Positions 10,137 through 63,949 of a stretch of 64,000 nt of DNA are shown here, piece after piece (position 1 is the first letter of the stretch; each line of letters opens with the position of its first letter). The stretch spans positions 35,898,001 through 35,962,000 of the forward strand of contig OX597819.1 of the NCBI GenBank assembly GCA_951406725.2, read 5' to 3'. The position numbers and the translations under genes are program-made. The notes under the pieces were generated by a model. That model searched no databases. It was not told where the DNA came from and worked only from the letters and a program-made list of their open reading frames with translations. The DNA is from Octopus vulgaris. Taxonomy: Eukaryota.

Positions 10137-10883
10137 ACTCACACGCTTGTCTCTGAAGAAACTTTTTGTTTATCATTTATTTATATATTATTTAATATTG
10201 TGAAATTGCCTTATGAAATAATATAAACTTAATCTACCTCATAGATAAAAATAAGATAAACGTTACATTCAGGATGTTTTTTGTTGTTGTTATTGTTAGA
10301 TTGACATAGCTTTCTTTGAGTAAATGAGCAAAGTGAATGTTCAGCTGCTTACTAGCACTAAATTTGTTCTCTCCTTCTCTTTGTCTTTCATACTCTCTCT
10401 CTCTCTCTCTCTTCTCTCTCTGCTGAAGTCTAAAAACTTATGCCATGATAACATCTTTTCATTGAATGCCAAACTTTGCTCCCTCTTCTCTGCCCCACCT
10501 CACTACACACAAACACACTGCTTCTGCTCAAGATGTTTCTCTTGCAGCACTCTAAGCTGGAATAGCTATAACAGAAGCATTTTTCTACATTATAAATAAT
10601 GGCAAGGAAAGAATATAGACATTACTATTATTACAGTTATGTTCTCCAATTGTTCCACTTAAAACAAATGAGTGCAAACTATGTCATCTTAGGTTCTTCA
10701 TATAGCATTATCTCACATTAATGTTGACAGTTACGACATCGACAAAAGCACAGCGATAAGACTAGCATTAGATTCTCAACAGAGTAAATAGACTTGGGTG
10801 CATTGTTTAACAATACACAAAAGGATAAAAAGTTTTGGCTCATAAAAGGTAATTTTCTCACTCATTGTCATTTGGTTCTTACC

Positions 10884-11240: not shown

Positions 11241-12284
11241 GAACCTTTTTGGGACTGACTAGTGACTGGTGACAAGAAATGGGTTCTCTATAAAAATGTC
11301 AAGTGCTAAAGAGAGTTGGTAGGGAGAGGAGAAACACCAGTACCCCAGGCCAAAGAAGCTCTTCACCAACATAAGGTGTTGTTATCTGTTTGGTGGGGTA
11401 TGAAAGGTTTAGTCCACTTTGAACTTTTAAATCCAAACCAAACAATAACAAAAGAGATCTACTATGGGCAGCTTAAGTGGCTTAAGTCAGTGCCAGAAGA
11501 AAGACAACAATCTTTGGTTTCAAAACGAAAGGTGTTCTTCCATACAGCAAGGATGACATTCCAGAGGCTGGAGCAGTTTGAATGGGAAATGATGCCCCAC
11601 CCACCATATTTGCTGGACATTGCCCAATTTGATTATCATTTATTCTGCAGTCTTCAAAATCATTTGGACACAAAGAATATGAATTCTGCAGATGAGGTCA
11701 GAACAGTACTGGAGGAGTATTTTTTCATTACAGACAAGTGAGTTTTGGAAGAGGGGCCTTGCAAGATCATTGCAGAAAATGAAGGAGAGTATATTTTAGA
11801 TTAAAAAAAATCTTTGTTTATCTTAATTTTGAGAAGTAACAGAGGCTGTGTGGTAAGTAGCTTGCTTACGAACCATATGGTTCCGGGTTCAGTCCCACTG
11901 TGTGGCACCATGGGCAAGTGTCTTCTACTATAGCCTCGGGCTGACCAAAGCTTTGTGAGTGGATTTGGTAGACGGAAACTGAAAGAAGCCTGTCGTATAT
12001 ATGTATATATGTATGTGTGTGTGTATATGTTTGTGTGTCTGTTTGTCTCCCCAACATTGCTTAACAACTGATGATGGTGTGTATACGTCTCCGTAACTTA
12101 GTGGTTCGGCAAAAGAGACCGATAGAATAAGTACTAGGCTTACAAAGAATAAGTCCTGGAGTCGATTTGCTTGACTAAAGGCGGTGCTCCAGCATGGCCA
12201 CAGTCAAATGACTGAAACAAGTAAAAAGAGTAAAAAAGAGTAAAGAGTATAAAAAAACCATGTTATTTATGGGTTGACCCAATA
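11241..12284 (+). mobile_element. Mariner (DD34D-type) transposase pseudogene 3' part with 3' TIR, split by a SINE
   Basis: LVTGDKKWVLY...KVLLSVWWG...PHPPYLLDIAQFDYHLF; TIR TTATTTATGGGTTGACCCAA+TA at about 12263-12284. Confidence 0.88.
11843..12248 (+). mobile_element. SINE family A
   Basis: Matches 3183-3620; inserted in the mariner 3' region. Confidence 0.9.
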
Positions 12285-18532: not shown

Positions 18533-19010
18533 TCAATTCAATTCAATTCAATTTTTATTGGCTCAAAAAGCAAAAACAAGGCCATATAGGGGGACAGGGA
18601 GGATGGTCATCATACAAAGAGTTCAGGCCATTTCTGGTCAAGAGAGACTTTGAACCGAGCGGTCGTCAGCATCTTCACTATCTCGTCCAGCAGCTTATTC
18701 CATGGATCCGCAACCCGGATGGAGAAAGCCCCTCTCCTTCGATTGAGAGGAAATCGTCGTAGATAGAGCTTTTCGGAGTGACCCCGCAGCCCATGCTCTG
18801 GAGCAGGAATGAAAAACAGCTCTTTCGAGAGGTTACACTTTCCGCTTATGATGTTGTGAGCGAGAATGAAATCACCACGGCAGCGTCGTTTTTCGAGAGA
18901 ATAAAGGTCGAGCGTCTTCAGCCTTTCTTCATAAGACAAATACTTGTGACCAAGAACCATTCAGGTAGCCAGTTTCTGAACTCTTTCAAGATTATGTATG
19001 TCTTTGAGGA
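18533..19010 (-). mobile_element. 5'-truncated CR1-clade LINE, second copy
   Basis: ORF 18610-18960 nearly identical to 494-940; (CAATT)n tail on plus strand. Confidence 0.9.
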
Positions 19011-33649: not shown

Positions 33650-34598
33650 AATGTGAGATGGTCAAATAGAGGCAGATATTTGAGTTTGAAATGAGGAATT
33701 ATTATGGAAAAGGAGGAGATAGGGAAAATAGAGGGAAATAAGAGAATGGAAGTAGAAATATAATACAAAATATATAAAGATATTGTAGTTGTAGTTCCAT
33801 TATTCGAGTAAAGTGGTGTATAGAAGTGGTAAAAATGTTTCTTGTACATGGTAAGTTTCAGTAGTAGTTCATGTTTAGTCATTTCAAAGTATGGAGCCAT
33901 AGATTCAGATGTTGTTCATTCAAAAGGGTCTTGTGGTGTGAATAAAAGTTTGAGAATGTATTGGTAGTATTTGTGGATAGATCGGGGAGGGGAGAGATGT
34001 GTATGATTAGAATGAGGAGATAGGTCAAAGTGAAAACATGAAGACAAAATGAGACAAAGAAAGAGAGAAAAAAGAAGAGAGAGAAAAAAGATAAAAAAGA
34101 GAGAAAAAGATGAAAAGAATGAAGAAAAAAATGAAGGGTGAAAGAAGTGAGAAAATTAGTGTTAGTTGGTGGTCAAGATGATGTGAGGGGAGGATGGGAG
34201 AGGAGTGGGGGAAGGGATAGGAAGAGATGAGAAGGTAAAGAGTGAATGAAGTGTGAGATATGTGAGTAGGGATGATGTAATACAGCTGCATTAAGGGATG
34301 GGTAGAGAAAAGGTATGGGTGGGGTTTTAGTAGTAAAATTTAAAGTGGAGGAAAGAATACAAGGATGTCAAATTTCTATAAATAGACGTATGTGATTGTA
34401 TATGTTAATGTGATAGGAAAAAAGGGGAGGAAAAAAGGTATAATGACATACGTATGCACGCACACATGTGCATATACATGTGTACATATGCATACATATG
34501 TATATACACACACACATACACATATATATATACATACGCATATACATACACATACATATATACACATGCATGCTATCTCATATATACCATCTCACATC

Positions 34599-34646
34599 AT
34601 CTCTGATGAAAGGATAGCCACAATATCCTAGAAACAGCTGTAAATG
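34599..34646 (+). ncRNA. Hammerhead ribozyme motif (first of tandem pair)
   Basis: CUGAUGA A AGGAUA gccacaa UAUCCU A GAAA CAGCUG UA; 3' strand of stem I disrupted. Confidence 0.55.
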
Positions 34647-34810
34647 TGTTAATATGCATATACATGTGTACATATGCATGTGCATATACATGTGTACATA
34701 TGCATACATATGTATATACACACACATATACACATATATATATACATACGCATATACATACACATACATATATACACATGCATGCTATCTCATATATACC
34801 ATCTCACATC

Positions 34811-34858
34811 ATCTCTGATGAAAGGATAACCACAATATCCTAGAAACAGCTGTAAAAC
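34811..34858 (+). ncRNA. Hammerhead ribozyme motif (second of tandem pair)
   Basis: Same motif 212 nt downstream, part of a tandem duplication of about 34447-34855; stem I imperfect. Confidence 0.55.
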
Positions 34859-36219: not shown

Positions 36220-36934
36220 TAATTTCTTAAAGTTGGTGTGGTAGAGAGTGAGGTCATTTGCATCACAGAACTCCCCAATCAGTCCTAACTTTATGTACCT
36301 TAGCTATAGACTCTGATGCCAGCAAAGCTCTCATACTGTTGTCCAATATATCAATTAAAATCACCAGCCATAACAATAAATTCAAAGTTACAGTTATATA
36401 TTTTGGAGGATGTCTGCAGAAGAGTCTCATCAAAATAGTCTTTCTGTGTATCTTCCAGAGCTGACAGTGGCGCATAAGCAGAAAATAAATGGCTGCTGTC
36501 ATGTTGTTGAAGACTGGCTAGAGCTTACTCATTATATTGCACACTTTATTACATACCTTGACTGTTTTAATTACCATGTATATTAATTTCTCTGCTAGTT
36601 ATATGCTCATGCCACTCACTCCATCTTTGGTACCTATTCAGAAGGATTTATATCTTTGTTCCTTGCCTGTGAGGAGTCAGGCTAAGGATCCTTACCATCT
36701 TACTTTCTGCACACAGCACACTGCCTCTCACCTACCTTTCAGTATCTCCTCAATCTCATGCATCCTACTTTCCATTGTACTGACATTAATGGTAGCCATC
36801 CTAAAGATGGTTACCTGACAGGAAATGGGGTTGGAATTCTCATATATACACACACACACGCACACATAAGCACTCAGGGACACACACACATGCACATTTT
36901 CCATCTACTTAATTCCACTCATGAAGTAGTGATC

Positions 36935-43835: not shown

Positions 43836-44629
43836 TTATATATATATATATATATATATATATCATTAGTGTAACATATATCCCAAAAAGAAGTACACTC
43901 TAAAGCAGTGGTTTTCAACCAGGGTTCTGTGGAACCTTAGGGTTCCGCCAGTACAGTTCTGGGGTTCTGCAAGAAACTACATAAATGCTAAACTCGACAA
44001 TAATTTTTAATTCTCCTGTGCAGATATGTGTGTACATGTTAGGCCTACGTGTACGTCTACGATTTGCATGCCAGCGTAGATGGCCCTGATCCTTGGTGTG
44101 TACATGTATGTGCACATCTACGAGTTGCATGCCAGCTTAGATGATGGTTTAGTTTGCTTTTGTAAAATACGAGTGACTATATTTGGAAGAAACATTTTAA
44201 CTGCGTAAGCCATTTAGGTGCTGTTAATACGCCTTTTAAAAGATCTTTAGCTTTTTAAAACGCGTTTTTGTAAAATCTTTTTCTTGTATGACGTCTATTA
44301 ATATTTGGTCAAATGTAGAGATAAAAAAAGAAGTAGGGAAACTGAAACTAAATTATAGAATATGTAAATATGCATAAATATTAATTCCTTACAAATTTCT
44401 GAATTAGAACAATGAACAAATAAATGACATTTTAAATTCAAATCCGAAAATCTATTTTATAATTATATGCTTATTGTTTAAATATAATCAAATACCTATT
44501 ACTAAATAACATTAATTAAAAAAGCTAAATTTTACATCGTTAAACTTGCTACATTTTAAAGATCTTTTTGTCCTGCTACTATTAGGTTTGCTTTTATATA
44601 TATACAATTCTGCTTACAGCCTTGCATGT

Positions 44630-46700
44630 ATGGATAGATTTCTGAAAAAAATGTAAGTTAAATACAGATGAAGAGACACAGGGTCTGAGGCAGTCTGTTG
44701 AAGTTGCAGTCACTGCTAGTGATGCTGCTTCGTTGATATTACCAAGAAATGATGGAAAACTCATTTGTGGAATTTGAGCCATTTGATGAACAGTTCACAT
44801 TAACAGAAGAAGAAGAACTTGTTAGTGTTTTAAATGACAGAACATTAAAGTTGAAGCATTCTGAGCTTCACCTGAATGCATTTTGGTTGCTGGTTGAAAA
44901 GGAATATCCTGCAATCACCCAGAAAGCACTGCGACCTCTTGTGCAGTTTTCAACCTCCTACTTCTAAAAGTTCATCAATATTGTGAAAACTAAAAGTTCA
45001 TCAATATTGTGAAAACTAAAAGTTCATCAATATTGTGAAAACTACATAGCTCTGAGATTTACTTGGACTGGAAACCCAGACTGCTCTTCACCTTTGTGTA
45101 CTGTTTCTGGGGAGAAGCTGGCTAATAGTGCTATGGCACCAGCCAAACTGAAACGACACTTAACGACTAAACATCCAGAGTTGTCAGGCAAAAAAGAATA
45201 ATGTTTTAAAAGAGAATTGGCATTTAATAAAAGGCAATTTTCTATGTTTGTCAAAAAGTTCAAGTTGAGTGACAAAGGACAAGAAGCAAGTTATGCTGTG
45301 ACGGAGATAGTTGCAAGAAAAATGAAATCTCATACCATCACTGAAACTGTAATTTTACCTGCATGCTAGGAAATAGTGAGGATAATGTTTGGAGAGGATG
45401 CTGTATCAGAGCTAAATAAAATTCCACTTTCTGACAACATAAAAGTAGGTTCATTCAAGACATGTCAGGAGACATTGAGTGCAATATTAAGTCAAAAATA
45501 CTGAAACATAAGTTGTTTGCACTTCAAGTTGATGAGAGTACAGACATCACTGGTAAATCACAGCTCCTTGTATTTGTTTGTTTTATTAATGATGAAGCTA
45601 TTGTAGAATACGCCCTGTGTTGCAAAGAGTTGACAGAAACAAGAAAAGGACAAGATGTATTTGATGTTTTAAATTCATATTTAGAGTATTGTGGATTGAA
45701 CTGGAAAAACTGTGTTGGTATTTGTACAGATGGTGCCCCTGCAATGACAGGATGTCTTAAAGGCTTTGTCCCAATTGCACAAAAACAAATCCAAATGTTT
45801 CATTCATAGAAAAGCACTAGTTGCTAAAACTCTTGGACCTGAACTAAAATCTTCATTGGCTATGGTAGTGAAAATAGATAATTACTTCAAAATGAGGCCA
45901 CTTAAATGTCGACAGTTTGTGAAACTTTGTGTGGATATGGAAGCAGACCATCCCACTTTAATCCAGCACACAGAAATACGATGGTTGTCAAGGGGAAAAG
46001 TATTGTCTCACTTTTACGAATTAAGAGAAGAGTTACTGACCTTTTGTTTGCAAGAAAACCTGAAAGACTTTGTAGAATGTTTGAGTGATGACCATTGGTG
46101 TTCCAAGTTAGCATATCTTGCCGATATATTTCATGAGCTAAGCCTCTTGAACAATGGCATGCAGGGCAGGAACGAAAATATCTTGTCTTCTATTGACAAA
46201 ATAAATGCTTTTCAGAAGAAATTGACAATATGGAAGAAACACATAGCTGCAGGAAATTTGGAAATGTTTCCAAGTGTTTTTAAAAGGAACTGTCAAGAAA
46301 CTGCGCTACTGATTTTGAACCATTTGCACACTTTGTTAACAAACCTTGACAAATATTTTCCATCGATATCTGTTGACCAGTATGACTGGATTAAGAAGAA
46401 CTTGCCAGTGTTTTAAATGACAGAACATTAAAGTTGAAGCATTCTGAGCTTCACCTGGATGCATTTTGGTTGCTGGTTGAAAAGGAATATCCTGCAATTG
46501 CCCAGAAAGTGCTGCAACCTCTTGTGCAGTTTTCAACCTCCTACTTCTGTGAATTTGGATTTTCAGCCCTGACAGCCACCAAGCACAAGAAGCGAGCACA
46601 ATTGCTGTCTGTGGAAGATGAACTTCGTGTGTGTCTATCAAAAACACGACCCAATCTTAAAGAGTTGTGCAAAAAACACCAGGCTCAAGTTTCTTATTGA
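44630..46700 (+). pseudogene. hAT transposase pseudogene (SCAND3/ZBED8-like)
   Basis: BED-like PLCTVSGEKLANSAMAPAKLKRHLTTKH, FALQVDESTDI, GICTDGAPAMTG, TEIRWLSRGKVL, LAYLADIF, FSTSYFCEFGFS; stops and frameshifts. Confidence 0.92.
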
Positions 46701-46880
46701 GTTTTTGATGAGAATAAATGTAATCTATTCAAACTAAAGTTTTTTTAATACATGTTTTAATAATAACTGTAGATGCAAGAATAAAATTGCATATGTATGT
46801 GACAATTTTTTACTGTTTGTGAATTTATTGTAAATAAATCTGAAACATGAGTATTCTCATTTCATTAATTAAATGCTGTT

Positions 46881-47168
46881 GTGTCTGGGGAGAGTCATTC
46901 TCTTTTAGTGCCTTATTATTTAGCATTCACCGGTAAAATTTTCACTTATTTCTTATTTTTATTTTCTAAAATTTTCGTTGCGTCTTGCAACCTTTTCAAC
47001 GAAAATTTTAGAAAATAAAAATAAGAAATAAGTGGAAATTTTACCGGTGAGTGTGTTAAATAATAAGGCACTAAAAGAGAATGACTCTCCCCAGACAATA
47101 GAATATGCTTCAACACACGAACTCATATAAAGAATCTTGCAAACCAAATCCAAAAACGAAATATAATA
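46881..47168. mobile_element. Fold-back + unique tail insertion inside the hAT, 10-bp TSD
   Basis: About 100-bp arms 46882-46980 and 46997-47097; TSD AAATGCTGTT at 46871-46880 and 47169-47178. Confidence 0.82.
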
Positions 47169-47304
47169 AAATGCTGTTTTTTTGCATAAGACAAATTATT
47201 GCACAGGGGTTCCTCGAGCCAGTGGAATGTTTCCTTGGGGTTCCACTCCAGCAAAAAGGTTGAAAAGCACTGCTCTAAAGTATAGAGTAGTAATGTATTT
47301 ACAA

Positions 47305-49770: not shown

Positions 49771-50159
49771 TAGCTATCTAAGCATTATAACATTTTTTAC
49801 CCCTTTTTCTACATAAAATCAACACTTCATTTGTAATTCTAAATGGCAATCATGTGCATAAGTTGGGATAATACGTTGTTTAGTTCGAAACCTGTAAAAT
49901 GTTGCTCTCAGGGAGGCAAGAGCACTTAATGATATGCTGAACAAAAGTCAACAGCACTGAAATGATGACTTCATTGAATTTGGTCCAAACATCACTAATG
50001 AGTGGAAGGGGGAGATATATCTTGCTGTGTACATCTATTAATAGGTACAAACACCACCTATTGCCACCAATTTTGTTGACTATAACAACTTGTGAGGGCC
50101 ACAATGACTTTGAAGGTATAATTATTCTCTCTGCCAGCAGTTCATTAATTTAGGAATTC

Positions 50160-50575
50160 GGATCTTTTCGGTTTGAACGGCAGTTTTTAACATAATTTCT
50201 AGGTAACTAAAAAATATTAAACTTCGTATACTGGTAGAATGTGTTTATAAAACATCTTTTTCTCTTGGCTTTATTGAGAAAATTCTATAGTTTGTAAGAT
50301 ATTTGTTGTTTTTTTCTTCAATTTCTGCAATTTCAACCAATCACTGACGTCTATTGAGGTAAAAAACATTCTGTGCCATATGAATGTGTCCCTCGTTTAA
50401 GAAACAGATTGGGTTTATTTACATTTGTAAAGAAAAAAAGATACCCTTCCCCCCACCCCTAACCCTAACCCTAAAACGGATTGAAATGCAATAGAGTGAT
50501 TCTAGGGTCATAATTATGGGTAACAATTTCATATGACACCGCTAGAAAAAACTGCCGTTGAAACCAAAAAGATCC
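50160..50575. mobile_element. Merlin-like MITE carrying (CCCTAA)n, intact
   Basis: GG-initiated TIRs GGATCTTTTCGGTTTGAACGGCAGTTTTT / AAAAACTGCCGTTGAAACCAAAAAGATCC; 8-bp TSD AGGAATTC at 50152-50159 and 50576-50583. Confidence 0.82.
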
Positions 50576-54732: not shown

Positions 54733-55479
54733 AAAATAAAAGCGTCTTGAAGAACTTCTTGCAAATGTTTTGATATTTATCTAAGAAACTGACAAAATCC
54801 TTAATTGGTTGTTAGACAACTATACCCTTATTCCTGCATTAAGTGTATTTTTATTGCTAATAAATTTACATGCAATGAATATTTTTGCTCTTGAATAATA
54901 GGTAATGACATCTGCTTCCTCCTTTGTAATTTCAGGTCATTCTATTTCATTACATTGTAACTGGCTGCTGCATCCTCTACTCTAGAAATAAACCCATTTT
55001 ATTAGTCTCATTTGACTTCATAACCCTATGATGTCTTTCAAGATAGGCAATAAATTTATCAAAGGAATCTGCAAAATTATCCATTAATATAAAAGGGTTC
55101 ATACCTAATGATGACACTGTTGTTTATAATAGCTTCAGGAGTGTATGAATTATAAATATTCAAATAAATAAAGTATCATAGAACTTCATCTCTCATCTTG
55201 GATGCATAACCGAAAAACGACGCAATAAGCTTCTCTTGTTTCAGCACTGATTTCCAAAAGTGTAATAATGCTAGAAACAGCTGCATCAAAAGACAGTTCA
55301 CATAGAAATCTTAGTCAAAATAGTAAGCCAGTGGCTTTCCATTCTCATTCTCTCAATCCAATGGAGAAAAAAGCAGTTATATACGAAAAAGGAATTATTA
55401 TCATTATAGAAGGCATTATTCATGTCATGCTGTAATTACAGGGTGCATTAGAAAGTAGAGACCGTTGCGCCATTACTAG

Positions 55480-55548
<69 letters not shown>

Positions 55549-55770
55549 TAGCAGCAGCAGCAGTATTTAGTATCCATTTTCCATGCTGGCATGGGCTGGA
55601 CAGTTTGACAGGAGCTAACAAGCATGTGGACTGTACCAGGCTCCAATTTATGCTTTGGCATGGTTTCTATGGCTGGATGCCTTTCCTAATGCTAATCACT
55701 TCCCAGAGTGTACTTGGAGCTTTTTACATGGCACTAGCAGAAGGGAAGTCACCAAGTAACTTGCAAGACA
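55480..55770 (-). mobile_element. RTE LINE 3' end (family C)
   Basis: (CAT)n plus conserved end. Confidence 0.75.
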
Positions 55771-57983
55771 AAACCTCTCAACTGAGCTGAGGGGTGTAGT
55801 ATTGAGGAGGTGGATTTATGAAAGGTGATGAGAGGTTAAAGTATGTATGATGGAAGGATAGAAATAGATGTCTCATAGTAGAGAAGATATATAGCTACCC
55901 CAGTTAAAAAAAAAAGAGAGATAGTGCAGAGGTATCAGAGCACACACTCAAGTTATAAGAAAGGGAAAATTAGAATAATGGTCCAAAGGATTGACAGGTG
56001 AATGGATAGGTAAGACAGTAAAAGTATGAAAGGAGAGTAGTGGATGGATAGAAAAGAATACAGTGAATGGTGAACTTCAGTGGGAGTGTGGTCACTGGTG
56101 AATAGCTTTGTTATTCTCACAGAGCAATACTTGGTTTCTTATCTTATTAACACTTGGAGATTATCCAAAATCTAAAGAGAAATATTCTATTTGGGGACCA
56201 ATGCAATAAATCAACTATGGATTCATTATAACATATCATCCAGGTTCAAAATGCAAGGTAGCAGACACATTTTCCAAATGAGCCTCCACAAAAAATATTT
56301 CTTATCTCATAGTCAATTCTGTTACTCAGGGTGCTCTAGAATGTTCCAGTATTGTAAAACTCATTACCTTACTGTTTTCCCTCATAGAAATTTACCAAAT
56401 CTGTAAAAGGACTAAAAGTAATGTTTCAGGTCAATAAGAGGCAGACTGTGACTAGACCATAAGAGTGAATTTCTATGGTCTTCATTGGATCGTTGCTATC
56501 TGTAACTGAAAATTAGTATTTACTTATGTTGGTGGATGAATACTCACAAAATTTCTTTGGATTTCCATGTCAAGACATGACAGCCAATGTTGTCATCTAT
56601 CACCAAAACCACCACCACCACCACCACCACCACCACCAGCAACAACAACACCTCCATCTCAATTATTTCATTGATTTTGGTCACGATTCCACTGCTGGGA
56701 CAGAAGGAAGTATTAAATTGAAATGGCCATCTATGTATCATACTTAATATATACACACTCAATAGGCCAATTGCAGCAGTTTTTGTCCTGAGAAAACATC
56801 TCTTATGGCCTTGCTGTGTTAAAAACTATAAATATTGAATAGAGACGAAAATTCTCCCCAACAGCAACCAGTGAAAGTGCCAGATGCATCTTAGCCTTTT
56901 AGGGGCCTCTTCAATGATGTGCACTCACAACCAGTCACATGCTTAATCAGAATTTGTCATCTCTGATATAGAAAAGAATGAATAAAATATTTACTGATGC
57001 TATGAATAACTGCCCGGTTGATTAAAATTTGGTATGTGCACATAAAAGGGATCAATCTTAAGCAAAATCATATGGCGATAAAGGGAGATTTGCCAATCAA
57101 AAAATCGATAAAAGAGGGAAATGTGATGTCATACTTTGTATGAGTCCAGTTTGGAAACAATAAATCAGATATATCTTGATCCATATACTCCAACAGCTGA
57201 AGGAATGATTCCTTCTATCCCAAATGTACAAGAACACATCCCAGCAGAACAACAAGAGGCACAAATAGAAATCTCACTATTCTCTGAACCAATTGAAAAA
57301 GGTCGACATTCCAGTGAATTAAACAAATTTTTTCCTGACAAGGAAAAGACACTAGTAAGAACATAAAGTGGATGTTAGATCCGATGGCCAAAGTGTTATG
57401 AATGATTATTGACATTTCTACAAGTCCAAATATCATTATTAATCAATAAATTCTACTTAAGTTTTCTACTGACATTCTTCTTCCTTGAGCTATTACTGTT
57501 CCTTTTACTTATCACCGTTGTCTTTCCTAATGTTTATGGTGATGCGGAGAGGGAGGGTTAGGAAGAGAAGGGGAGGAAGAAGAGGAGAAAGAATTATATG
57601 ATGGTGGTAGTGGCAGATTAAATGCTGCCTCTTGTGAATAATGTACGATGCTGCAGGGTAGAGAAACATAAGCACTAAATATGAAGGATGTCTGAAGATG
57701 TGAAAGAAATGAAGCAAGTATACTCCAGTGGATGTGTGCATGTAAGAGCTACAATTTGTTGAACTAAATGACAAATGATCGCTAAATATGATGACACATA
57801 TGCACACAACACCCCAGAGCACCACTACAACATTATTCTATAATAAACTGTGTTCCATTCAGCTGAAAAGAAAAATATATGTTTATTACACAAAAACAGT
57901 TGCAACACGAATAATATAAATTAATTGGTTGTCTTTTGATCTGAGAAAGACTGTTTCACAACTTACAACTTCAGATGATTTGT

Positions 57984-59720: not shown

Positions 59721-61103
59721 ATTAATTGTTTACATATAGTCTTTTGTTTTTCATGTATTCATATTCCTTCTGATATTGTTATCTGTTTTTGTTATTTATG
59801 TTATTCTTTATGTATATTTATTTATCTATTTAACCATACATTAATTTTTTTTTTGTGTTTTTTTTTCGCTTTATTTTATTTCATCCTGTTACCCTCACTG
59901 GAGCCAGTATTTAGATCTCTGATATTAAACCATTCTACAAAAATTCCTAAGGGATATCATTCCATTTTTTTTTCTTTTTTGTCCCTTGAAATAAAACATT
60001 TTCCACTTCCTTTTAATTTTTGTTTTTTAAATGCTTAACAAAAATATTCATAACATTCTTCATTCTATCATTATTTTCATGATAAATTCTGCTAAAATAA
60101 CAATAAGACAAGACAAAAAGGCATAAATAAAAATGGAATTGTATAGAAATTCTTATTTTGTTTGCTTGCTTTATGTTGCTTCTTTTTATTTGCCACATTC
60201 AACCCCCTCATCATCCTCACCACACACACACACACACACACATACATACAGGAAGTACTGTTGTGTATAGGAGATGAGTACATACTAGTGTTTTGAAAGC
60301 ATTAAATGTTTCAAGCAGCATCTCTGTCCAGGATAGATTGTCAGTCCATTATAGATCTAGTTTATGGGACAACTGGAATTGGTTAGATGAGAGACAGTCA
60401 ACATCTCTCACGTGCAGTTTCATTGTCACCATTTATGTCGATATCATCATCACCATCATTTTTATGTTGTCTTTCCATGATGGTATGGGCTGGAGATGAG
60501 TCATTATGGCTTGAATCAGTTTTTGTTTGGATTACTTTTCTCTCTCAGATGTGGTCAGGAACCAGTTGGCATCAGTTTTACAACTAGATCTCCTTCGTAA
60601 CTCCAAACACTTTGCAGAGGGTACTGATGCATTCATTTGAGTCAAACAAATTGTTCTTTACATAATGGCACCTAATTGCATTTTCTTTCTTTTTTTTTTT
60701 TTTGCAATTGTTTTTTCAAGGTTTTCAAGGTTACTAGGAATGGTGAGAGGAAGTCATCATCATACCACACACATGGCTCAAATGCTTGCAATAGTGAATT
60801 CCACAGAAGGCTCCCACCTCTCAGGATCAGCTGGTGGTATTAAACCAGACTATAATTTAATTCTACATCCAAGAATAGGAATAACCATTTCGATGAGCTT
60901 CCACATATTTTCCACCAACCAAATCCCACTCACAAGGTGTTGGTTATCCAAAGGCTGTTACAGAAGACCTTTGTCCAAGGGGCAAAACAGTGGGATTGAG
61001 TATAAAAGCTATGAATGGAAATTCTTAACAGAACCATTCCTTCACATCCATATTAAAGAGTGTTCTGGAGAAGAAATAATGAATGTTATGATTAGGAATA
61101 CAG

Positions 61104-61561
61104 TATAGTGATGTCAGGGTTACCATTTTATTGTGGTAATATCAATTAAAATGGCGGTGCCCCAGCATGGCCACAGCTTGTGAGCTGAAACTAGATAAAA
61201 TAGAAAATGAAATAGAAAATAATTTAGTGAGAAAAAGAGGGGTCACTATCTTGTATATAACAACAAGAAAATAGAAATTTGTGAGACGTCTGCAATCACA
61301 TGTCTCCAAGTAACATGTGCGCAAGCTGATGTGTAAATGTGGCGGCCTGACCCAATGATGGTCGAAGAATCAACAGGCACTGAATGGCGTGAATTTAGAA
61401 ATTCCTTCCTTTATATAAGGGATGAACCAGAAGCCCCAGACTTCCATGTAAACCGGAAGCTTCCAGAATGTTTGAGAACTTTCCAGAAGCTTGAGGGAGA
61501 TTGCTCTCGTTAAATTCCTTTTCTGTTTTTCTTCTTAATGTGACCACCAGGTTTCACTACA
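61104..61561 (-). mobile_element. Solo LTR (Gypsy-like)
   Basis: Termini T(A)TAGTGA / TCACTACA, 4-bp TSD ACAG at 61100-61103 and 61562-61565; minus-strand TATATAAA and AATAAA in the expected order; SINE A-type tail inside at about 61150-61215. Confidence 0.7.
61379..61493 (-). promoter_or_regulatory. Heat-shock element array + TATA box + Inr-like site in the LTR
   Basis: GAAgcTTCcaGAAtgTTTgaGAActTTCcaGAAgcTTG at 61456-61493; TATATAAA at 61417-61410; TCAGT at about 61383. Confidence 0.6.
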
Positions 61562-61959
61562 ACAGCATTTTCAAGTTCAAAGACACAGTCTTTGATAATA
61601 ATTGAGTAGAGGTCATCAGAGCGTGCGATATAACAGTGGCGACAAGGATTTCGTAGCTCACGCAGCCACTGTGTAGTATTGCAATATAACACTTGAGAAA
61701 ATAACTTTACAGGCCAACTAACAAGTTTCTGCATAGCTTATAACCCAAAAGACTTGGGTTGATCTGAGCTGATGGTAAAAAACACCTGCCAAAGCTGCCA
61801 ATTGGTGGGATCAGAACTGGGGCATCATCATTGTAAACAGAACAAGCATTGCTATCCTGAGACTAAAACAACAACAACAGCAATAAAAAAACAACAACCA
61901 GAATATACTGAAGTCAGTCTAATGAGATATAATTCTTTCACTAAAATGTTGGTTATATA

Positions 61960-62366
61960 GGCGTAGGAGTGGCTGTGTGGTAAGTAGCTTGCTTACGAAC
62001 CACATGGTTCTGGGTTCAGTCCCACTGCATGGCATCTTAGGCAAGTGTCTTCTACTACAGCCTCGGGCCAACCAAAGCCTTGTGAGTGGATTTGGTAGAC
62101 GGAAACTGAAAGAAGCCTGTCGTATATATGTATATATATATATGTGTGTATGTGTATATGTTTGTGTGTCTGTGTTTGTCCCCCCAACATCGCTTGAAAA
62201 CCGATGCTGGTGTGTTTATGTCCCCGTAGCTTAACAGTTCGGCAAAAGAGACCGAAAGAGACCGATAGAATAAGTTCTGGGGTCGATTTGCTCGACTAAA
62301 AGGTGGTGCTCCAGCATGGCCACAGTCAAATGACTGAAACAAGTAAAAGAGTAAAGAGTAAAGAGT
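61960..62366 (+). mobile_element. SINE family A, full length
   Basis: Matches 3183-3620. Confidence 0.9.
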
Positions 62367-63150
62367 ATATTCAATGAGAAGAAAGTAACACTACCATTTT
62401 CCATGATGGGGGTGAGAGCTGAACAGAAATGATAAACGCCCAGCAAATTTAGTCAAGACTCTAGATTTTATTCTTACTTGCAGTTATTTCATATTATTAA
62501 AGTCATTAATGCCTCTGAACAAATGATGTAAATGTAATAGAATTTTGTTTCTGTTACACTAAAAAAAAAAAAAATCAAATGTGCACATGAAGTTAATATC
62601 ATCATATCCCTGACTAACCACACACAGAGTTGAAACCGGTTTCATATTTCATATGAATTGAATTGCAATATGTCTTGCATATTTATATGTAGGCATAGAC
62701 ATGTGTGTGCATTTGTGTATGTATGTATGTATGTATGTGTGTATGTATGTGTGTGTGTGTATGTATGTATGTATGAATGTATGTATGCATGTATGCATGT
62801 ATGCATGTATGTATGTATAGATGTATGTATGTATTTATGTATGTATGTATGTCTGAATGAATGAATGTATGTGTGATATTATTCAGTTTTATTTCAAGAT
62901 CTCTTGTCAATAGAGAAAGAGTTAGCTTTTAACCTAAATCTAAGGCTTCTTCACTAAAATTTCAACAACATCAACAGGGTATTTTTCATGTTTGTGTGTA
63001 TGTGCAGTATTTGGAATCAGTACATGTGCAGATTTGTATGTTTTGTTTTATGTATGTATTCTCAGGCATATAGTTGCATATCTAAACATGTACATATCAT
63101 CATCATCTTCATTTAGCATCTGCTTTTCATGCTAGCATGGGTTATATGTA

Positions 63151-63474: not shown

Positions 63475-63650
63475 AGGGAGAGTTTACGAAAAAAACAAAA
63501 GACTAAGACAAGTGATGTACAAAACAAACAGATGTATTAGTATAATGCTCAGGAACAGAAAAAGTCTTTAGTGTTTCGAGCCTACACTCTTCTACAGAAA
63601 GGGACACAGAAAAAAACAAGGAGAGAAAAAAGTGTGTGTAGTGGCTAGAT
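63475..63650 (-). mobile_element. Family H2 pLTR-like fragment with hammerhead-like motif at 63566-63601
   Basis: Direct similarity to 7408-7618. Confidence 0.6.
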
Positions 63651-63949
63651 GACTTGAATCTGTAATCTTCTAATTGACTTTCTTCTTTCTGGTTTTGAGA
63701 AGCTTAATTTCTCAAGATCGGTGCTTTAGCACAAGGTCAAAGATATGCAACTAAAACACCCTGAAGATGGAGGTCAGATCCAGCTTATGTTTAAATGATT
63801 TTACTTCTAGTTACATATCCTTGACTCTGTGTAAACTACATCTGCCAACTATTTGAGGTAATTTCAAACCTCCAGAAATAGTGTCAGACCTTTAATACCA
63901 AACCTTCTCCCTTTAATTTTCTGTCTTTACACTATATATTTATAAATGA

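Follow-up and report, generated by a model that had tools for sequence, protein, structure and literature searches.

A run of heat-shock elements (HSEs) in the genome of Octopus vulgaris raises the question of whether a transposable element (TE) has placed a heat-switched promoter at this locus, in which direction such a promoter would fire, and whether a host gene lies within its reach. We addressed this question in a stretch of 64,000 nucleotides, hereafter the window, to which all coordinates and strands refer. An earlier sequence-only reading had interpreted positions 61104-61561 as a solo LTR whose heat-shock promoter points into the window. The candidate promoter and its transcript are delimited by the following features.

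61455-61494, no strand assigned: HSE array of eight alternating nGAAn/nTTCn units, six of them perfect, in exact 5-bp phase
61410-61419, both strands: two-way TATA box, reading TATATAAA on the minus strand (61417-61410) and TATATAAG on the plus strand (61412-61419), each fitting TATAWAAR
61379-61387, minus strand: predicted start region (prediction only), with an A at 61385 or 61381 and TCAGT at 61383-61379
61127-61132, minus strand: AATAAA, 23 nt before the minus-strand end of the inner element described below

A motif scan recovered the eight-unit array, with its six perfect units and 5-bp phase, exactly where it had been reported. Specifically, the perfect GAA/TTC cores lie at 61456, 61461, 61466, 61476, 61481, and 61486, while the imperfect units read TTT at 61471 and TTG at 61491. 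The array consists of two perfect three-unit HSEs joined in phase, the only two such HSEs in the 64 kb, and contains the canonical HSE, defined as three or more nGAAn units of alternating orientation spaced in 5-bp phase. Block-wise shuffling that preserved local dinucleotide composition gave, over 300 replicates, a top score of 3 in 208, 4 in 90, and 5 in 2, and a score of 6 in none (0/300). Among 32 trinucleotide pairs, GAA/TTC alone attained 6/8 in the unmasked DNA of the window. Two three-unit HSEs somewhere in the window are unremarkable by themselves (12/100 shuffles), and it is their phasing that stands out. The eight-unit array is not a product of chance, and HSF would very probably bind it in vitro. 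A 9-bp direct repeat, AAATTCCTT, brackets the module of TATA box and HSEs at 61399-61407 and 61512-61520, probably by chance.

The minus-strand TATA box TATATAAA, which had been claimed about 40 bp from the array, is present at 61417-61410 with a gap of 37 bp, and the TCAGT claimed downstream of it is found at 61383-61379. Judged by the usual spacing between TATA box and start, the A at 61385 (32 bp from the TATA box) fits slightly better as the predicted minus-strand start than the A of TCAGT at 61381 (36 bp). The perfect plus-strand TATA box TATATAAG had been overlooked; the HSEs lie upstream of the predicted start if the LTR runs on the minus strand and downstream of it if the LTR runs on the plus strand. 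An AATAAA near 61127, proposed earlier as the LTR's own, is indeed located on the minus strand at 61132-61127, 253 nt past the predicted minus-strand start, where it occupies the loop of a weak hairpin with a 6-bp stem (z -0.68). The 282 nt from the predicted start to the end of the inner element contain no ORF longer than 8 aa, and no splice donor above 0.8 bits (approximate weights) precedes this AATAAA, so the predicted product would be short and non-coding. By eye, a pyrimidine tract followed by AG in an antisense SINE tail (61186-61225, minus strand) forms a possible cryptic splice acceptor within the predicted transcript, about 60 nt before the AATAAA.

To define the element that carries this module, we compared its flanks and ends.

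61104-61561, minus strand: inner element of 458 bp, likely a Ty3/gypsy solo LTR, with ends inverted at 7/8 positions and a 3' end that reads TA
61100-61103, no strand assigned: left copy of ACAG, a putative 4-bp target-site duplication (TSD), from flank comparison
61562-61565, no strand assigned: right copy of ACAG, from flank comparison

The inner element ends in TGTAGTGA and TCACTATA, with ACAG on either side; its TGT start is intact, while the minus-strand 3' end is TA and not CA. The LTR with a 4-bp TSD proposed by the sequence-only reading stands in part: ACAG is found on both sides, whereas LTR identity is not established by this boundary. Its ends are weak, and 7/8 ends combined with a 4-bp duplication are also produced by 20/400 local shuffles and recur at 7 further unmasked positions of the 64 kb. 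When TSDs of 4-6 bp were allowed, the same boundary test was passed by 110/1500 shuffles. The combination of TSD, 7/8 ends, TGT, and an AATAAA near the minus-strand 3' end occurred in 4/1500 shuffles, by criteria that were partly post hoc. The TATA box (61417) and the AATAAA (61132) follow each other on the minus strand in the order expected for a Ty3/gypsy solo LTR, and the distance from the TG to the TATA box is 144. A GT-rich stretch after the AATAAA is described as typical of such LTRs (PMC3601003); by eye, none is present in the 23 nt between the AATAAA and the end of the inner element.

Several results bear on the class and completeness of the inner element. Its ends fit the general Metaviridae motif at 6/7 and 5/7 positions, and the CsRN1 motifs TGTGGYG and MSYYAMA equally at 6/7 and 5/7. 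A SINE tail (about 61142-61215) accounts for roughly 65-75 bp of the segment, and once it is deducted the net length is 384-395 bp. The CsRN1 training LTRs listed in PMC3601003 measure 146-409 bp (median 355), and PwRn1 of the CsRN1 clade is described with a 4-bp TSD and 381-bp LTRs (PMC2582038). The inner element combines a 4-bp TSD with a length inside the 146-409 bp range, which suggests CsRN1 membership. No second LTR copy was detected in the window by blastn with a word size of 7 or by nhmmer with six pieces; Rfam gave no match within 61084-61700 at E up to 5, no tRNA genes (0) and no plasmid or vector match were found, and a 75-aa minus-strand ORF that crosses the inner boundary (61510-61737) has no Pfam match. 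All things considered, the inner minus-strand LTR is moderately likely to be real. As for other arrangements, two tandem LTRs (61216-61262 versus 61597-61635) were not accepted: 32/1000 and 38/1000 controls do equally well, a modest result for a comparison picked post hoc out of 8. DIRS, CACTA, and Helitron readings were dropped since none accounts for the primer-binding site (PBS) described below.

The SINE tail inside the LTR had been overlooked by the sequence-only reading, and both flanks are made up of old minus-strand SINE copies.

About 61142-61215, plus strand: SINE tail, a 5'-truncated 3' part from the SINE family that is common in the window, present as an insertion within the inner LTR (E 9e-7 for 61150-61199)
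60889-61050, minus strand: old SINE copy on the left flank (E 2e-16 for 60889-60999)
61725-61811, minus strand: old SINE fragment on the right flank, about 75 bp after the PBS (E 2e-8)

Equally overlooked were a plus-strand LTR end and PBS at 61628-61650, which point to a second, outer element around the first.

61084-61103, plus strand: likely left piece of an outer Mag-type LTR, which starts TGTTATG and contains AATACA (61097-61102), overlapping the left ACAG
61562-61635, plus strand: right piece of the outer Mag-type LTR, which ends in ATATAACA (61628-61635)
61637-61650, plus strand: PBS TGGCGACAAGGATT, separated from ATATAACA by a 1-nt spacer and 13/14 identical to the PBS of cqgypsy_15

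The outer start, 20 bp left of the inner element, fits the general Metaviridae motif at 7/7, Mag C at 7/8, and Mag A at 7/7 positions, though such a start motif is by itself frequent (51% per 700 bp). The end ATATAACA fits general Metaviridae at 7/7, Mag C at 8/8, and Mag A at 8/12, and the Mag C end motif followed by TGG has 4 occurrences in the window. The PBS of the Mag element cqgypsy_15 is annotated as tRNA-Ser (PMC3286476), and the outer element likewise has a tRNA-Ser or -Leu site just after its CA end. Within the window, TGGCGACAAGGATT is the sole match at no more than 2 mismatches, while 24/100 shuffles give one somewhere in 64 kb. In the Culex LTR sequence file of PMC3286476, all matches to TGGCGACGA (7/7) lie 1-4 nt after a CA, and an estimate with 60 stand-in tRNA tails puts the chance occurrence of a CA with a PBS-like site at about 0.006 per 400 bp. 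Additionally, a by-eye comparison of 24 nt beginning at 61562 with the Mag LTR cqgypsy_15, over its AATAAA and the bases that follow, shows 17/24 identities; with the 3 bases left of the left ACAG added, the match becomes 20/27 across the ACAG pair (post hoc, about 1e-3 after 1000 looks). By its PBS and ends, the outer element looks like a member of the Mag lineage. Neither gag-pol nor a 3' LTR was found after the PBS, with no Pfam match in 61560-61960, 62370-63091, and 63600-63943, beyond which the window ends.

We considered whether the PBS could be a by-product of the adjacent SINE. A pairwise alignment extends into the PBS, but 232/300 shuffles score equally, and the SINE profile match stops at 61725; this origin was rejected. 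The end of the outer LTR and the start of the PBS pair with 61666-61683 in a hairpin resembling a U5-leader (16-bp stem, 61624-61683; z -1.67, 12/200 shuffles), which is suggestive only. A further copy of TGC(G/A)ATATAACA lies at 61680-61691, and in all there are three occurrences of ATATAACA, at 61255, 61628, and 61684.

Two plus-strand ends around a minus-strand element can be read in two ways. In the first, 61084-61635 is a single plus-strand 5' LTR of the Mag lineage, followed by its PBS, and both the ACAG flanks and the ends of the inner segment arose by coincidence; transcription would then start near 61438 from the plus-strand TATA box and point out of the window, opposite to the direction given by the sequence-only reading, with the HSEs lying in R or acting both ways. 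This reading places the best end motifs and the PBS on one strand, makes use of a perfect TATA box with a YR start at 61438 and of a T-rich tract behind GTTAAA at 61509, and requires no rare nesting event; the inner boundary alone is, moreover, reached by 5-7% of shuffles. Yet it has to attribute the inner ends, TGT, and minus-strand AATAAA to chance (4/1500), it finds no AATAAA or ATTAAA between the plus-strand TATA box and the LTR end, and it leaves the 20/27 match to a Mag LTR running across the ACAG pair. It would also set the HSEs downstream of the start, unlike in the four induced families described for Macrostomum (PMC12801592). We regard this single-LTR reading as rather unlikely.

In the second reading, which we prefer, a minus-strand, CsRN1-like Ty3/gypsy solo LTR carrying the array and TATA box was inserted in a short plus-strand Mag-type LTR and would act as an HSF-driven promoter. 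Without the inner element the outer LTR measures 90 bp, and with it 478-489 bp net; in the training set of PMC3601003, Mag A LTRs span 108-441 bp and Mag C LTRs 86-305 bp. Nesting is favoured because a single LTR of 478-489 bp net would be longer than any of the 36 training LTRs of Mag A and Mag C, while the inner length fits CsRN1, and because PwRn1 of that clade has a 4-bp TSD and 381-bp LTRs. It is further favoured because AATACA overlaps the left ACAG and the cqgypsy_15 match spans the ACAG pair (by eye and post hoc), and because the stretch from the plus-strand TATA box to the outer end lacks a canonical poly(A) hexamer. Against it, so small a target is a priori rarely hit, and the 90-bp outer LTR stands at the short extreme, below the Mag A range, with 13 nt before AATACA, its only poly(A) signal being this variant and not AATAAA. 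Mag C is, according to the families given in PMC6238403, rare in O. bimaculoides; the inner element has its TA end, the imperfect CsRN1 motifs, and no GT-rich stretch; the TATA box is usable in either direction, and the T-rich tract at 61515-61540 would be in keeping with a poly(A) region on the plus strand. Finally, the PBS has no gag or 3' LTR behind it, and the inner segment has no second copy in the window. Weighing these points, we hold the nested, HSF-driven structure to be evenly balanced between right and wrong. That the array sits in Ty3/gypsy LTR DNA is very probable. The TE-donated, heat-inducible promoter of the sequence-only reading is thus retained insofar as a TE-borne, HSF-type minus-strand solo LTR is the best reading of the inner segment (4/1500; Macrostomum-like geometry), and abandoned insofar as the insertion does not stand alone in host DNA.

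Next to this structure stands the question of host genes. If the LTR marks were coincidental, the locus could be a genuine host heat-shock promoter, of an HSP gene or of a lncRNA, with a non-coding first exon. The textbook-like geometry of HSE, TATA box, and Inr agrees with such a promoter, as do the single copy of the segment in the window and a CpG o/e that reaches 0.63 at 61280-61700 but is 0.29 for unmasked DNA. Pfam searches of 265 ORFs of at least 45 aa, of 55 read-through frames, and of 57/86 predicted exons together with three read-through frames yielded no host-gene or chaperone family, although short or non-coding exons could escape them. The AATAAA 253 nt past the start, which no good donor precedes, likewise argues against a host promoter, and TE origin is independently indicated by the PBS and the LTR ends; we consider a host promoter highly unlikely.

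The sequence-only reading had further suggested that transcription could read through toward minus-strand exons, which would make the solo LTR a co-opted, heat-inducible alternative promoter of a host gene. Its orientation does point into the window, and promoter-proximal poly(A) sites can leak. HSE-bearing Helitrons are described as having rewired Caenorhabditis genes (PMC6927752). Nevertheless, read-through gains no support here: the LTR has its own AATAAA, 9 poly(A) hexamers (7 AATAAA and 2 ATTAAA) lie on the minus strand within 3.5 kb, AATAAA numbers 67 as far as the window start, and the scans gave no domain of a host gene. Within 800 bp, no donor exceeds 3.6 bits, and the best ones lie beyond the LTR's own signal. 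In Macrostomum, only two solo LTRs are reported within 2 kb of mildly induced genes (PMC12801592). Co-option into host exons is, in our estimate, extremely improbable.

The confident domain matches in the window are those of transposons: a mariner transposase lies above the cut-off, and RNase H and DUF4371 fall below it. The strong minus-strand exon candidate at 36737-36814 continues through in-frame stops and resembles a relic of a LINE endonuclease. Weak Pfam matches to TMEM126_like (10721-10861, minus strand), bPH_10, and Pox_polyA_pol_C (E 0.001-0.01) were set aside, being below the cut-off and at the rate expected for 265 queries; the first (E 0.008) is the only minus-strand match to a eukaryotic cellular family and stays at chance level.

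Other elements of the window were recorded alongside. A decayed Gypsy pol (55229-57400, plus strand) contains RNase H (Pfam E 4e-5, below the cut-off) and, by eye, an integrase-like frame at about 56400-56600 with no database match, and is interrupted by SINE and microsatellite insertions. A frameshifted Gypsy relic (49800-50180, minus strand) is N-terminal RT-like (RVT_1, E 0.03). Homologue searches gave nothing usable to link the LTR to either the 55.2-57.4 kb (plus) or the 49.8-50.2 kb (minus) pol piece, and such a link was not adopted. A broken hAT-type transposon (43900-47280, plus strand) has a transposase whose best matches are Octopus 'ZBED5/FAM200A-like' proteins at 85-91%, which suggests, because of this likeness, that those gene models are transposon copies; its 3' region is partly repeated upstream (about 44790-44960), next to a perfect 26-bp repeat present three times (44964-45044). 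Two LINE-like fragments of 410 bp (603-1012 and 18601-19010) are 92% identical in opposite orientation. The mariner transposase fragment (Pfam Transposase_1, E 3e-17) lies at 11310-11741 on the plus strand, and a 212-bp tandem duplication at 34465-34856 (98% identity) reflects a recent duplication or an assembly artefact.

Returning to the nested minus-strand LTR, established HSF biology and the flatworm precedent outline how it would work. Under heat or proteotoxic stress, HSF1 trimers would occupy the array, which spans about -109 to -70, in the cooperative manner usual for HSF, and Pol II would then fire near 61385, leftward on the minus strand. The parent family may have used the HSE promoter as a means to boost its own transcription, as Mag and CsRN1 LTRs of Macrostomum do. 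From the decayed copy one would expect a non-coding transcript some 270-280 nt long. The LTR's own AATAAA would terminate it, or else one of the eight other hexamers found within 3.5 kb, and no host gene would gain a new first exon.

Whether the copy still fires is a separate matter. An alternative shares the nested anatomy and differs in present activity: the copy would be functionally dead, silenced or decayed, with the array a neutral relic and no heat-induced RNA. The element is old enough to have received a SINE insertion and a TA end, and it is surrounded by SINE, LINE, and DNA-transposon debris. Elsewhere, HSEs are not always sufficient: the HSE-bearing Copia families of Macrostomum are given as not induced (PMC12801592), and two Drosophila TIR insertions, among the rows listed with a heat-shock reporter test, were unresponsive (PMC6649756). 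On the other hand, six of the eight units, the TATA box, and the start region are intact, and octopus TEs are described as carrying little DNA methylation (PMC9476566). A dead copy is thus a serious possibility, which we place slightly short of even. Heat induction of this copy in vivo may occur and is on balance doubtful.

The closest known systems are the HSE-LTR families of Macrostomum lignano, namely Mlig-id115|Mag, Mlig-id36 and id55|CsRN1, and Mlig-id38|Gmr1/Osvaldo (PMC12801592, bioRxiv 10.1101/2024.12.18.629116). As reported there, the four families of Mag, CsRN1, and Gmr1/Osvaldo have HSEs upstream of the start and are induced more than 250-fold, HSE mutation abolished the induction of a reporter, and the uninduced HSE-bearing Copia families number two (PMC12801592). 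The octopus locus likewise has canonical HSEs upstream of a TATA box in an animal Ty3/gypsy LTR, and the same clades, Mag and CsRN1, are implicated; in Mlig-id115, a TATA-like stretch lies by eye about 140 nt after the TG, as compared with 144 here. It differs in its cephalopod host and in being a single decayed, nested solo LTR known from sequence alone. Its array forms one contiguous eight-unit run, which counts as 2 canonical motifs by the Macrostomum regex, against 1-4 in the families described there. The validated Mag, CsRN1, and Gmr1 LTRs of Macrostomum make an HSE-bearing animal LTR an already known kind of element.

ONSEN and Helitron1_CE are more distant parallels. In ONSEN, a Ty1/copia element of Arabidopsis, the LTR promoter recruits the host heat-shock factor, and insertions can make neighbours heat-responsive (PMC6927752, PMC12801592); the octopus element resembles it in having an LTR with a putative HSF-type promoter, whereas ONSEN is an active, validated plant Copia and no neighbouring gene was found in our window. 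Helitron1_CE of Caenorhabditis similarly delivers HSEs by a TE in an animal genome, but it is a rolling-circle DNA transposon for which HSF-1 binding is reported as measured (PMC6927752), while our locus has the LTR hallmarks of TG/CA-type ends, TSD, and PBS. With regard to anatomy, the outer element resembles the Mag 5' LTR of cqgypsy_15 (PMC3286476) in its end motifs, 1-nt spacer, and PBS (13/14), and differs in being interrupted by the inner LTR and in having neither gag-pol nor a 3' LTR in the window. The inner element resembles the CsRN1-clade LTRs PwRn1 and Boudicca (PMC2582038, PMC3601003) by its 4-bp TSD and net length and by a clade abundant in O. bimaculoides, where Gypsy content is stated to be dominated by CsRN1 (15 families) and Mag AB (10; PMC6238403); it departs from them in its 6/7 and 5/7 end motifs and in having no internal region, the part that would carry the clade's tRNA-Trp PBS, its CHCC Gag, and the RT used for phylogeny. 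We found no report of an HSE-bearing LTR in a mollusc or cephalopod in the open literature, subscription journals and Repbase/Dfam entries lying outside this search.

What, then, does the locus mean? A single decayed copy without a target gene changes little, and the nested anatomy illustrates that solo-LTR calls from short ends and a 4-bp duplication are weak alone. A larger, speculative and unlikely possibility is that the copy stems from an octopus HSF1-driven Ty3/gypsy family with a contiguous eight-unit array, whose solo LTRs would be dispersed heat-switched promoters or enhancers, some controlling host genes or lncRNAs; here, because the array is symmetric and the TATA box faces both ways, transcription could also run into the interrupted Mag leader. 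The Macrostomum authors predicted that more HSE-LTR cases would be found (PMC12801592). If the array is common to the family, this would be one more case in which an LTR retrotransposon has independently captured the heat-shock pathway, in a host lineage for which ocean warming and brain TE expression are live topics, and, if true, an HSF1-driven family in octopus would be the first in a mollusc within the literature searched.
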